Origin: Escherichia coli
GTDB taxonomy: Bacteria; Pseudomonadota; Gammaproteobacteria; Enterobacterales; Enterobacteriaceae
Assembly (NCBI RefSeq): GCF_051903065.1
Contig: NZ_CP178438.1
Direction: 5' to 3' (one strand)
DNA length: 64,000 nt
Shown: positions 7,274 to 21,376 of the stretch, in pieces
Numbering within the stretch: position 1 is the first letter of the stretch
Layout: each line of letters begins with the position of its first letter
Position numbers and translations under genes: made by a program
The notes under the pieces: model-generated
Database searches by the model: none
Seen by the model: only the letters and a program-made list of their open reading frames with translations
What the model was told of the DNA's origin: nothing

Positions 7274-7319
7274 GTGAGGAAGACCGGGCGGGAAACTGCC
7301 CGGCCTGAACATACCTGAA

Positions 7320-7457
7320 TGGTTATCCCCGCTGGCGCGGGGAACATAAGTTCGACAACTTAAAAAATGATAACAAGTCCGGTTTATCCCCGCTGATGCA
7401 GGGAACATAATAAAAACTTTAACTAGTTCGGTTTATCCCTGTTTTTACAAGGAATAT
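7320..7457 (-). CRISPR. Degenerate CRISPR mini-array (3 type I-E-like repeats, 2 spacers)
   Basis: Repeats tggttatccccgctggcgcggggaacat (7320-7347), cggtttatccccgctgatgcagggaacat (7380-7408), cggtttatccctgtttttacaaggaatat (7429-7457); one 32-bp spacer and one 20-bp spacer; same orientation as the main array. Confidence 0.75.
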
Positions 7458-8976: not shown

Positions 8977-9554
8977 TGGTTTATCCCCGCTGGCGCGGGG
9001 AACTCGTACTGACGGATAAAAATAATACCTTTTGCGGCGGTTTATCCCCGCTGGCGCGGGGAACTCGTCAACGTTTTTCATGTGGGCATGAGTTGGGGCG
9101 GTTTATCCCCGCTGGCGCGGGGAACTCTATTCGGCCTCGTGCTGGTCGTGACAAAATACCGGTTTATCCCCGCTAGCGCGGGGAACTCTGGCGATATTGC
9201 CTACCGCAACAAAGAAAATACGGTTTATCCCCGCTAGCGCGGGGAACTCATCCACGAATCCAGTGCAAATGAGTTTGTTGGCGGTTTATCCCCGCTAGCG
9301 CGGGGAACTCATTGTGACTACCACCGATAACCCCGCAACCACCGGTTTATCCCCGCTAGCGCGGGGAACTCCTGCATTCGCCTGCGGTTATCAGATCGCT
9401 AAACGGTTTATCCCCGCTAGCGCGGGGAACTCGCTGCCATTACTTCCCGCCAGCGTTGCTCTGGCGGTTTATCCCCGCTAGCGCGGGGAACTCGCAGAGA
9501 ATCGTTCGATTGCCCCTACATCTTCCGGTTTATCCCCGCTGGCGCGGGGAACTC
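8977..9554 (-). CRISPR. CRISPR array, type I-E (E. coli-type) repeats, 10 repeats / 9 spacers
   Basis: 29-bp repeat cggtttatccccgctggcgcggggaactc (reverse complement of GAGTTCCCCGCGCCAGCGGGGATAAACCG) with an exact 61-bp period; nine 32-bp spacers at 9006, 9067, 9128, 9189, 9250, 9311, 9372, 9433, 9494; the first repeat has t instead of c at its first base. Confidence 0.97.
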
Positions 9555-15753: not shown

Positions 15754-17406
<1,653 letters not shown>

Positions 17407-17618
17407 TTAGGTTGAAAAGACGATGGAATAACCAGGACGGGAAAGCAGTATACCCGAACATGACCTGTGCCACAAACTTTCATTATCCCTCCTCTTCGCC
17501 AGCGCACTATTGAAATCAGGAGTGAGAAAATAGCCCCTTTGGGGTAAATGTTTTTGACGCAAATCAAGCGCTTGTCATTTAAAAAATGACACAAATGGCG
17601 CTTGACCGCGTAATTCCC

Positions 17619-18410
17619 TTAGAGATCAATTTCCTGCCGTTTTACCTGTTGCCAGACTTCTTCCATTGTTTCGAGGTCAACACCTGTCATTTCCAGTCCA
17701 CGCGCGGCAACAATACGCTCCACTTCGCGAAAACGACGCTCGAATTTTTCGTTCGCTTTTTGCAATGCGATTTCTGCTTTCGTCCCTAAATGGCGAGCCA
17801 GATTAACCGTGGCAAACAGCAGGTCGCCCATTTCCTCCTCCAGTTTAGCCTGGTCGATAACAGCCTGCCGTGCCTCGTACATCACCTCGTCGATCTCTTC
17901 GTAGACTTTATCGACTACCGGACCAAGCGTCGTCCAGTCGAAGCCAACGTTGGCGCAACGTTTCTGGATTTTTTGCGCACGCATTAAAGCCGGTAAACTA
18001 CGAGGAATATCGTCCAGCGCCGAATGCTGCGCTTTCTGCGCGCGCTCTTCGGTTTTGATTTGCTCCCAACGGGCAAGCACTTCACTACTGTTTTCGGCAG
18101 AACTGTCAGCAAAAACATGCGGATGGCGACGCTCTAATTTATCGCTAATAGCAGCGCAAATATCATTAAAGTCAAAGCGCCCTTCTTCCTGAGCCATTTG
18201 CGCGTAAAACACCACCTGGAATAGCAGATCGCCCAGTTCACCGCGCAGATCGTCAAAATCTTCACGGGCGATGGCGTCCAGCACTTCGTAGGTTTCTTCA
18301 AGGGTGTAAGGCGCAATGGTGGCAAATGTCTGCTCTTTATCCCACGGGCAGCCGTTTTCCGGATCGCGCAGGCGCTGCATAATAGTGAGCAAACGGTCGA
18401 TTTGATTCAT
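17619..18410 (-). CDS. mazG: Nucleoside triphosphate pyrophosphohydrolase MazG
   Basis: 263 aa with tandem MazG domains; immediately downstream of mazEF. Confidence 0.93.
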   Translation of the reverse strand: MNQIDRLLTIMQRLRDPENGCPWDKEQTFATIAPYTLEETYEVLDAIAREDFDDLRGELGDLLFQVVFYAQMAQEEGRFDFNDICAAISDKLERRHPHVFADSSAENSSEVLARWEQIKTEERAQKAQHSALDDIPRSLPALMRAQKIQKRCANVGFDWTTLGPVVDKVYEEIDEVMYEARQAVIDQAKLEEEMGDLLFATVNLARHLGTKAEIALQKANEKFERRFREVERIVAARGLEMTGVDLETMEEVWQQVKRQEIDL

Positions 18411-18480
18411 TAGAATGTCCTGAAAATTGCGGGTCCGTCAGGTGGAAACCTGTGACCAGAATAGAAGTGAGTTAGTAACA

Positions 18481-18816
18481 CTACCCAATCAGTACGTTAA
18501 TTTTGGCTTTAATGAGTTGTAATTCCTCTGGGGCAACCGTTCCTTTCTTCGTTGCTCCTCTTGCCCGCCAGGCGATACTTTTTACCTGATCAGCTAACGC
18601 TACGCCATCACGTTCCTGACCGGATAAAACAACTTCGAACGGATATCCTTTTGATTGCGTTGTACAAGGAACACACAGACACATACCTGTTTTGTTGTTG
18701 TACATGAACGGACTCAGGACAACAGCCGGACGATGTCCGGCTTGCTCGCTACCTTTTGTCGGGTCAAAATCAACCCAAATCAGATCGCCCATATCGGGTA
18801 CGTATCGGCTTACCAT
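18481..18816 (-). CDS. mazF: Toxin MazF (mRNA interferase, ACA-specific endoribonuclease)
   Basis: 111 aa, [66 protein letters not shown]... Confidence 0.97.
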   Translation of the reverse strand: MVSRYVPDMGDLIWVDFDPTKGSEQAGHRPAVVLSPFMYNNKTGMCLCVPCTTQSKGYPFEVVLSGQERDGVALADQVKSIAWRARGATKKGTVAPEELQLIKAKINVLIG

Positions 18817-19064
18817 TACCAGACTTCCTTATCTTTCGGCTCTCCCCAGTCGATATTCTCGTGGAGGTTTTCCGGCGTGATGTCGTTGACCAGTTCAGCA
18901 AGCGTAAATACGGGCTCTTTACGCACTGGCTCAATAATTAATTTGCCATCCACCAGGTCAATCTTCACTTCATCATCAATATTCAGATTGAGCGCCTGCA
19001 TTAACGTAGCCGGGATCCGCACCGCCGGTGAATTTCCCCAACGCTTTACGCTACTGTGGATCAT
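18816..19064 (-). CDS. mazE: Antitoxin MazE
   Basis: 82 aa, [82 protein letters not shown]; 1-nt overlap with the mazF start. Confidence 0.97.
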
Positions 19065-19141
19065 AACCCTTTCCTCAAACCGCTATCATATGTAGATACA
19101 GTATATATCAATCTACATTGTAGATACGAGCAAGTTTCGGC
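19065..19141 (-). promoter_or_regulatory. mazEF promoter region with palindromic operator
   Basis: Inverted repeats in atgtagatacagtatatatcaatctacattgtagatac directly upstream of mazE; consistent with the described MazE/MazF-bound alternating palindrome. Confidence 0.6.
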
Positions 19142-21376
19142 CTAACTCCCGTGCAACCGACGCGCGTCGATAACATCCGGCACCTGGTTCAGTTTACCCA
19201 GCACGCGACCCAGCACTTGCAGGTTGTAAATCTCAATGGTCATGTCGATGGTCGCCAGTTGCTGTTTGGTGTCGCTACGGCTGGCAACGCCAAGCACGTT
19301 CACTTTCTCATTGGCGAGAATGGTCGTGATATCACGTAACAACCCACTACGATCATTAGCCACCACGCGGACCACCAGCGAATATCCGGCGGAGTAGCTC
19401 TCGCCCCATACCGCGTCAACAATGCGTTCTGGCGCATGGGAGCGCAGTTCCGCCAGTTGTTCGCAATCGGCGCGGTGTACTGAAATACCGCGTCCCTGGG
19501 TAATGAAGCCGACAATCTCATCTCCAGGAATCGGCTGGCAGCAGCGCGCGATGTGGTGCATCAGGTTACCGACACCTTCAACCACCACACGACCGTTATC
19601 TTTACTGCGGTTTTGCGGCGTGTAGCTTTTTTGCTGAAGTTGCTTCAGCGCGGCGGCGTCCTGCTCTTCGGCACTCGGCTTATTAAATTGCGATTGCAGG
19701 AAGTTCACCATCTGATTGAGACGGATATCCCCGCCACCAATCGCCGCCAGCAACTCGTCGACATCATTGAAGTTGTAACGCGGCAGCAGATGTTTTTCTG
19801 CTTCTTTCAGGCTGATCCCCAGATGTTCCAGCTCGTCGTCAAGGATTTGCCGCCCAGCCAGAATGTTTTTGTCACGGTCCTGTTTACGGAACCAGGCGTG
19901 AATTTTCGAACGCCCACGGCTGGTTGTGACGTAACCGAGGTTTGGGTTTAACCAGTCACGGCTGGGGTTCGGCTGTTTCTGGGTGATAATTTCAATCTGG
20001 TCGCCCATTTGCAGCTGGTAGGTGAACGGCACAATGCGCCCGCCAATTTTTGCCCCGATGCAGCGGTGTCCGACATCACTGTGGATGTGGTAAGCGAAGT
20101 CCAGCGGCGTTGATCCCGCAGGCAAATCAACGACATCACCTTTCGGCGTAAAGACATACACCCGGTCGTCAAACACCTGACTACGTACTTCGTCGAGCAT
20201 TTCGCCGGAATCAGCCATCTCTTCCTGCCACGCAATCAGTTTACGCAGCCAGGCAATCCGGTCTTCATGTCCCGAACGTGCGCCGCCAGCAGCCGCGCCC
20301 TCTTTATATTTCCAGTGCGCAGCAACACCCAACTCTGCATCTTCATGCATCTGTTTGGTGCGGATTTGGATCTCAACGGTTTTTCCACCCGGCCCCAGAA
20401 CCACGGTATGAATAGACTGATAACCGTTTGGTTTCGGGTTAGCGACGTAATCGTCAAACTCATCCGGCAGGTGGCGATAGTGAGTGTGCACTATCCCCAG
20501 TGCGGCATAACAATCCTGTAAACGCTCGGCGACAATACGTACCGCACGCACATCAAACAGCTCATCGAAGGCGAGGTTCTTTTTCTGCATTTTGCGCCAG
20601 ATGCTGTAGATGTGTTTCGGACGACCATACACTTCAGCTTTAACGCCTTCAGCTTTCATCTCAGCGCGCAGATGACCGACAAACTCTTCGATATAGTGTT
20701 CGCGGTCGAGACGGCGTTCATGCAACAGTTTTGCGATGCGTTTGTATTCGGTCGGGTGGAGATAACGGAAGCAGTAATCTTCCAGCTCCCATTTCAGTTG
20801 CCCAATCCCAAGACGGTTTGCCAACGGCGCGTAGATATTGGTGCACTCTTTTGCCGCCAGTACGCGTTCATCTTCCGGCGCATCTTTTACTTCACGCAGA
20901 TGAGCAATACGCTCCGCCAGTTTGATGACCACGCAGCGAAAATCATCGACCATCGCCAATAACATCCGGCGAACGTTATCGACCTGTTCGGAGGAAACAG
21001 AATCAGTGTGCGTCGCTTTCAGCTGGCGGATCGCCGCCATATCACGCACGCCGTGAATAAGGTTAACGACCGACTTACCGACGCTCTCACGCAGCACATC
21101 TTCGCTGACTACGTTGGCATCGGCCAGAGGGAACAGCAGCGCCGCCCGCAGCGTGTCAATATCCATACTTAATGTCGAGAGGATCTCCACCATCTCAACA
21201 CCACGCCACAATAACAGACTGGCATCCGGATGCCCCTGCGTCTGCTGCAGACAATACGCCCAGGTTTCGGCTAAGCACTCACACGACTTCTGGCTGGTAA
21301 TACCCAGACTTGCGATCCATTTTTCCGGATCAAATTCACCAGCCTTATTGATATGTGCACTTCTTACCGCAACCAT
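19142..21376 (-). CDS. relA: GTP pyrophosphokinase ((p)ppGpp synthetase I)
   Basis: 744 aa; HD-like and synthetase domains plus TGS/ACT C-terminus; position upstream of mazEF. Confidence 0.97.
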   Translation of the reverse strand: MVAVRSAHINKAGEFDPEKWIASLGITSQKSCECLAETWAYCLQQTQGHPDASLLLWRGVEMVEILSTLSMDIDTLRAALLFPLADANVVSEDVLRESVGKSVVNLIHGVRDMAAIRQLKATHTDSVSSEQVDNVRRMLLAMVDDFRCVVIKLAERIAHLREVKDAPEDERVLAAKECTNIYAPLANRLGIGQLKWELEDYCFRYLHPTEYKRIAKLLHERRLDREHYIEEFVGHLRAEMKAEGVKAEVYGRPKHIYSIWRKMQKKNLAFDELFDVRAVRIVAERLQDCYAALGIVHTHYRHLPDEFDDYVANPKPNGYQSIHTVVLGPGGKTVEIQIRTKQMHEDAELGVAAHWKYKEGAAAGGARSGHEDRIAWLRKLIAWQEEMADSGEMLDEVRSQVFDDRVYVFTPKGDVVDLPAGSTPLDFAYHIHSDVGHRCIGAKIGGRIVPFTYQLQMGDQIEIITQKQPNPSRDWLNPNLGYVTTSRGRSKIHAWFRKQDRDKNILAGRQILDDELEHLGISLKEAEKHLLPRYNFNDVDELLAAIGGGDIRLNQMVNFLQSQFNKPSAEEQDAAALKQLQQKSYTPQNRSKDNGRVVVEGVGNLMHHIARCCQPIPGDEIVGFITQGRGISVHRADCEQLAELRSHAPERIVDAVWGESYSAGYSLVVRVVANDRSGLLRDITTILANEKVNVLGVASRSDTKQQLATIDMTIEIYNLQVLGRVLGKLNQVPDVIDARRLHGS

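Follow-up and report, generated by a model that had tools for sequence, protein, structure and literature searches.

An intact mazEF toxin-antitoxin module at the relA-mazG site of an Escherichia coli chromosome

The chromosomal mazEF module of Escherichia coli K-12 (chpAI/chpAK, b2783/b2782) ranks among the best-studied toxin-antitoxin systems, and its closest described relatives are built to a similar plan. The chpBIK (chpS/chpB) paralogue of E. coli likewise combines a toxin of the PemK/MazF fold with an AbrB-type antitoxin, and the plasmid systems pemIK and parD (kis-kid) carry the same toxin fold in the same antitoxin-first architecture as mazEF. For the E. coli toxin, Arg29 and Thr52 have been described as contacting the scissile phosphate (PMC10864209), and an inactive enzyme, E24A, serves as a control construct (PMC5888573). 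The regulatory region has been dissected with defined DNA fragments, among them a three-site operator oligonucleotide designated 'cab' (Zorzini et al. 2015; PMC4333400) and a promoter fragment, 'Sense_MazEF', defined as the 75 bp that precede +1 (PMC8749433). The same study that supplied the promoter fragment described an antisense RNA, aMEF, transcribed from a promoter within mazF, and combined five silent mutations to knock that promoter down (PMC8749433).

How the module serves the cell is a much less orderly subject. Reviews report co-transcription of relA-mazEFG (PMC7167474, PMC6343021), and one of them has already argued both that mazEF is a presence/absence polymorphism, with UTI89 as a cassette-free strain, and that relA-mazG functions as a bicistron in the absence of mazEF (PMC7167474). 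Directly contradictory claims of programmed cell death, reversible stasis and no phenotype at all stand side by side in the review literature (PMC7167474), and a 2025 paper puts forward a role in promoting growth at rRNA genes (PMC12541390). As for the physiological role, whether the module serves the stress response, modulates growth, excludes phages or is a selfish insert is disputed, and sequence does not settle it.

Here we describe a mazEF copy in a 64,000-nucleotide stretch of an E. coli genome (assembly GCF_051903065.1, contig NZ_CP178438.1), hereafter the window. A six-frame list of open reading frames places relA, mazE, mazF and mazG on the minus strand in that order of transcription (Table 1). 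The interval under study, 18481-19141, begins at 18481, where the mazF stop codon ends, and runs to 19141, one base short of the relA stop codon. The module therein occupies the relA-mazG position characteristic of E. coli mazEF, with the antitoxin gene first and mazE directly 5' of mazF. The two genes overlap by one nucleotide, base 18816 being common to the mazE stop codon TAA (18818-18816) and the mazF start codon ATG (18816-18814), such that the junction contains TAATG; on the coding strand it reads AAGGAAGTCTGGTAATGGTAAGC. Both genes have a Shine-Dalgarno motif at a normal distance from the start codon: GAGG within 19076-19062 for mazE, and AAGGA for mazF, the latter inside the 3' end of mazE.

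Table 1. Positions of the features discussed in the text, numbered from the first base of the window
Feature	Position	Strand	Description
relA	19142-21376	(-)	GTP diphosphokinase, 744 aa, upstream neighbour
relA-mazE intergenic region	19065-19141	(-)	77 nt, 38% GC; mazEF promoter, operator, leader
'cab' operator (MazE/MazEF)	19081-19130	(-)	oligonucleotide match, first 50 bases (PMC4333400)
Operator site c	19127-19109	(-)	
Operator site a	19111-19098	(-)	ATATAT core within 19109-19101
Operator site b	19106-19088	(-)	
Sense mazEF transcription start	19093	(-)	inferred from published oligonucleotide (PMC8749433)
mazE antitoxin	18816-19064	(-)	82 aa, ATG start
mazF toxin	18481-18816	(-)	111 aa, ATG start, ACA-specific endoribonuclease
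aMEF promoter fragment	18702-18776	(+)	75 bp, oligonucleotides from PMC8749433 supplement
mazF-mazG spacer	18411-18480	(-)	70 nt
mazG	17619-18410	(-)	nucleoside triphosphate pyrophosphohydrolase, 263 aa, downstream neighbour
CRISPR array, type I-E	8977-9552	(-)	ten repeats, 61-nt spacing
CRISPR repeat cluster, type I-E	7319-7406	(-)	two degenerate repeats

The encoded proteins leave little doubt about identity. The toxin scores 84.8 bits against the Pfam PemK_toxin model (PF02452; cut-off 23.1) and 227.4 bits against the NCBIfam equivalog for endoribonuclease MazF (NF007386; cut-off 120), and it is identical over 111/111 residues to PDB 3NFC_A (E = 1.9e-73). The antitoxin, which has an N-terminal DNA-binding domain of the AbrB/SpoVT type and a C-terminal tail that binds MazF, scores 52.9 bits against MazE_antitoxin (PF04014; cut-off 24.7) and 196.2 bits against the NCBIfam equivalog for antitoxin MazE (NF007312; cut-off 113), is identical over 82/82 residues to PDB 1MVF_D (E = 4.8e-52), and also matches the MazE chain in PDB 1UB4, a MazE-MazF complex. 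Arg4, Glu24, Arg29 and Thr52 of MazF are all present. The RefSeq protein accessions WP_000581937.1 and WP_000254738.1 occur at both the K-12 locus and that of ECNB21-M121, a strain from meat whose mazEF locus is 100% identical in DNA to the window.

A preliminary description of this DNA, made from its letters and open reading frames, had reported a complete, well-known mazEF module with a one-nucleotide overlap, flanked by relA and mazG, and had proposed alignment to K-12, inspection of the MazF catalytic residues and careful retranslation as checks. Each of these points was borne out. The neighbours are confirmed by the open reading frame list and by RefSeq annotation of matching loci; MazE, MazF and RelA equal their K-12 counterparts residue for residue; the catalytic residues Arg29 and Thr52 are unchanged, as is Glu24; and retranslation revealed neither a frameshift nor a premature stop in mazE or mazF, both of which are full length and matched by Pfam, NCBIfam and PDB entries. 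The relA and mazG frames are likewise free of internal stops.

The same description had noted a palindromic operator upstream of mazE, and this too is upheld, both by the published binding fragment and by inverted repeats that use a common middle arm. The operator comparison rests on the 'cab' oligonucleotide from Zorzini et al. 2015 (PMC4333400), whose initial 50 bases match the window with 0 mismatches, and by chance none was expected, as judged from 100 shuffles; the last base of the oligonucleotide is T against G in both the window and K-12, and hence does not distinguish the strains. The palindrome is of the alternating kind, in which the arm at 19111-19118 is complementary to 19090-19097 on one side and to 19119-19125 on the other: the first pairing joins ATGTAGAT (19090-19097) to ATCTACAT (19111-19118), the second ATCTACA (19111-19117) to TGTAGAT (19119-19125). 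The autoregulatory operator overlaps the promoter. The promoter itself was placed by the published 75-bp fragment and not by consensus scanning. The 'Sense_MazEF' fragment maps to 19168-19094 with 1 mismatch at 19134, and the transcription start that it implies would give a 29-nt leader, with the hexamer TATACT ending at -7. The mismatched base is also the single substitution in the leader relative to K-12 (C here, T in K-12) and lies outside the operator. Scans for consensus sigma-70 promoters and for terminators yielded counts no better than those of shuffled sequence; the promoter scan missed the published mazEF promoter, and its sole minus-strand site near mazE is weak and overlaps the mazE start codon. 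The relA-mazE leader folds no better than its shuffles (z = -1.06). An Rfam scan of 17400-19400 returned no match at E <= 1, and for aMEF no Rfam family exists.

These comparisons bear directly on whether the locus could instead be a remnant, decayed or inactive, in the form of a pseudogene or a non-functional operator. Nothing found in this analysis favors such a reading, and it is refuted by the full-length frames, by proteins that equal the active, crystallised ones, by mazE DNA identical to that of K-12, and by an operator equal to the published binding fragment; its probability is negligible. The feature is almost certainly mazEF (chpA), the canonical type II toxin-antitoxin module of the E. 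coli chromosome, intact and at its usual site, and no evidence against this identification emerged from the analysis. As such, it is an ordinary and already well described module.

The mechanism of the canonical module can be read across from the characterised K-12 proteins, which are residue-for-residue identical. What the sequence itself establishes is that the genes are intact, what the proteins are, and where operator, overlap and module lie; cleavage of RNA, neutralisation and proteolysis, as well as autoregulation and a transcript shared with relA and mazG, we infer from the literature. ACA cleavage, MazE neutralisation and MazE lability are assigned to this copy because its proteins are 100% identical to those characterised experimentally. 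A MazF dimer would act as an endoribonuclease that cuts single-stranded RNA at ACA, with Arg29 and Thr52 positioned at the scissile phosphate, and a MazE dimer would block it, the C-terminal tails of the antitoxin, which are disordered, entering two MazF dimers. The N-terminal AbrB-type domain of MazE is predicted to bind the three 'cab' sites over the promoter, and MazF would strengthen this binding, such that the pair would repress its own transcription. MazE is presumably labile, through Lon and ClpAP, and a fall in its synthesis would free MazF to cut mRNAs, rRNA precursors and its own mRNA, with arrest of translation and growth as the outcome. The single-base TAATG overlap probably couples translation of mazF to that of mazE, and the antisense promoter inside mazF may add the further layer of control that has been reported for aMEF.

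The downstream neighbour is a well-supported MazG (133.9 bits against Pfam PF03819). A terminator scan identified no minus-strand terminator-like site in either the relA-mazE or the mazF-mazG interval, and the mazF-mazG spacer contains a weak 5-bp hairpin only, with no convincing terminator (fold z = -0.20). The absence of terminator-like sites and the weakly folding spacers are compatible with read-through, be it over relA-mazEF, over mazEFG or over both. The term 'operon' is nevertheless a claim of the literature and is not readable from sequence; relA is served by one promoter and mazEF by a separate promoter-operator.

From relA to mazG, 62 positions differ from the K-12 chromosome (L001). 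There are no DNA differences in mazE, and 3 small ones in the mazF-mazG spacer. The 4 substitutions in mazF, at 18739, 18727, 18709 and 18538, are all synonymous, the corresponding codons here being Ala26 GCC, Pro30 CCG, Pro36 CCG and Thr93 ACG. In relA, 47 differences are synonymous and 0 non-synonymous. The only residue that differs across relA-mazE-mazF-mazG is MazG Ile185 (codon at 17858), which is Val in K-12. Within relA, 28 of the 47 synonymous differences are crowded into ~420 bp at 20510-20930, where divergence reaches ~6.7% compared with ~1% elsewhere, a clustering that suggests a recombination patch that left the RelA protein unchanged.

Three of the four synonymous changes in mazF (18709, 18727 and 18739) lie inside the aMEF promoter fragment, at -68, -50 and -38 with respect to the implied aMEF start at 18777 (+); the published northern probe for aMEF spans 18781-18824. 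The change at -38 (A in K-12, G here, on the antisense strand) is one of the five knock-down mutations of PMC8749433. The entire fragment, moreover, equals the 'Shig_asmazEF' oligonucleotide insert of that study, the main text of which reports no result for the 'Shig' construct. The fourth substitution converts codon 93 (18538) from ACA in K-12 to ACG, and by our count mazF contains 8 ACA sites here and 9 in K-12. Published counts for K-12 disagree (7 in PMC8749433, 9 in PMC5888573), and our own agrees with the latter. A second ACA-to-ACG difference from K-12 is found at 18436, in the mazF-mazG spacer. Among complete E. coli genomes, the aMEF 75-mer is matched exactly in its window allele ~1,261 times and in its K-12 allele ~2,936 times, counts that are approximate because BLAST may clip terminal mismatches and the query was shifted by one base. 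The window and K-12 mazF alleles are both common and natural. Judging from these changes in the aMEF promoter and the lost ACA site, expression set-points may differ slightly from those of K-12. That the synonymous allele actually sets a MazE:MazF expression balance or a self-cleavage feedback different from that of K-12 strikes us as quite improbable; if it did, it would mean that 'silent' variation tunes the set-point of a toxin-antitoxin system between E. coli lineages.

With a 731-bp region as the query and a coverage of 80% or more, the mazEF cassette was found in 4,415 of 5,426 complete E. coli genomes (~81%), and an empty relA-mazG junction, at the same coverage, in 1,007 (~19%); together the two states account for 5,422 of the 5,426. 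Each of the 4,415 genomes has a single copy of the cassette, whose position in the chromosome does not vary, and none of these copies lies on a plasmid record. In the cassette-free strain FCI1, mazG follows relA after 95 bp. Alignment of the two alleles indicates that ~688 bp (~18452-19139) replace ~50 bp located just after the relA stop codon, the alleles diverging right after that stop and rejoining ~40 nt ahead of the mazG start codon; GC content is 46% in the cassette, against 51-54% in the flanking genes. The empty site of FCI1 (L002:3445-3545) has features of its own: directly behind the relA stop sits a strong 12-bp hairpin, with another hairpin after it, and the fold energy is -33.3 kcal/mol (z = -4.7) in this 95-bp spacer, whereas the allele that carries mazEF has nothing comparable. 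The structure might act as a terminator or attenuator of relA, one that was lost when the cassette took its place.

Such a distribution lends itself to the view that mazEF, while intact, is an essentially selfish accessory cassette inserted between relA and mazG, which persists by addiction or drift and has neither a dedicated host function nor a functional link to relA and mazG. The 1,007 undisturbed junctions set beside 4,415 cassette-bearing genomes, among 5,426, the clean exchange of ~688 bp for ~50 bp, and the contrast in GC content all argue for it, and the review PMC7167474 argues exactly that. On the other hand, the proteins equal those of K-12 and only synonymous changes have accumulated (4 in mazF, 0 in mazE), a pattern that indicates purifying selection, although addiction alone could yield the same. 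Published phenotypes also speak for a host function, namely autoregulated growth heterogeneity (PMC5888573) and resolution of transcription-replication conflicts (PMC12541390). Nor is there a sign of recent mobility, the best genuine plasmid-borne homologue of MazF in a search of a plasmid collection being only 67% identical, on an Erwinia plasmid. Taken together, we regard the selfish cassette as a serious possibility whose chances fall somewhat short of even. A plasmid origin was considered separately and rejected, as the sole match above 95% identity in the plasmid collection was a 4.8-Mb record, evidently a chromosome, and the next stood at 67%. The record in question, PLSDB NZ_OL790696.1, is an E. 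coli sequence that appears to have been filed among plasmids.

For the canonical mazEF module, a role in phage defence has also been put forward. The reading in which its main role is anti-phage abortive infection, whereby a phage shuts down host transcription, MazE decays and MazF destroys RNA before the phage cycle ends, appears unlikely here. Arg4 of MazF, present in this copy, is what we take to be the target of T4 Alt. The phage evidence for mazEF is limited to P1 and to modification of MazF by T4 Alt (PMC7167474, PMC6343021): deletion of mazEF is cited as raising P1 infection loads (PMC7167474), and T4 is cited as ADP-ribosylating and inactivating MazF, which resembles a counter-defence (PMC6343021). 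Against this literature, PADLOC-DB v2.0.0 gave no match to MazE, MazF or MazG at E <= 0.001, and mazEF resides between housekeeping genes and not in a defence island.

The preliminary description had also drawn attention to CRISPR arrays in the same window, and type I-E repeats are indeed there at two places (Table 1). They lie ~9 kb from mazEF, however, with eno, pyrG and other metabolic genes between, and the same arrangement of mazEF, metabolic genes and CRISPR arrays recurs in ECNB21-M121, the strain with the identical allele. As the arrangement is a fixed one with housekeeping genes in between, the proximity of mazEF and CRISPR is best regarded as chromosomal happenstance and not as linkage. 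The arrays of the window are the ones adjacent to queE and ygcE, and the larger of the two contains six consecutive repeats with the same C-to-T variant. In ECNB21-M121, a CRISPR array is located between queE and ygcE, and the region from eno to queE (L004:18042-21613) carries a LemA gene and three TPM-domain genes. Calling mazEF a stress or abortive-infection module finds some backing in the P1 and T4 literature. As a statement of function it needs qualification: the role is contested, PADLOC-DB offers no model match and 1,007 genomes do without the cassette; the 'abortive infection' label was the weakest part of that earlier reading.

A mazEF copy that encodes the exact K-12 proteins matters little in itself, and the value of describing it resides in correct annotation. 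Two mildly useful by-products may be added: a clean population count, with the cassette in ~81% and the empty junction in ~19% of complete genomes, and the recognition that common 'silent' mazF alleles alter a published antisense promoter and one self-cleavage site.

The placement of the module among its relatives is clear. Against the ChpB equivalog model the window toxin reaches 55 bits (cut-off 129), and against the ChpS model the antitoxin reaches 35 bits (cut-off 101); the pair is thus far below the ChpB/ChpS cut-offs and far above those for MazF and MazE, which rules out a ChpBS identity. Kid of the kis-kid system (PDB 1M1F) matches MazF at E = 7.6e-9, and the plasmid systems pemIK and parD are only distantly related to the window copy, which is chromosomal and at a fixed site. 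With K-12 mazEF, by contrast, the agreement is close to complete: gene order and chromosomal neighbours are the same; the spacing is the same, with a 77-nt leader, a 1-nt overlap and a 70-nt spacer; the MazE and MazF proteins and the mazE DNA are 100% identical; and the operator is identical to that of the window.
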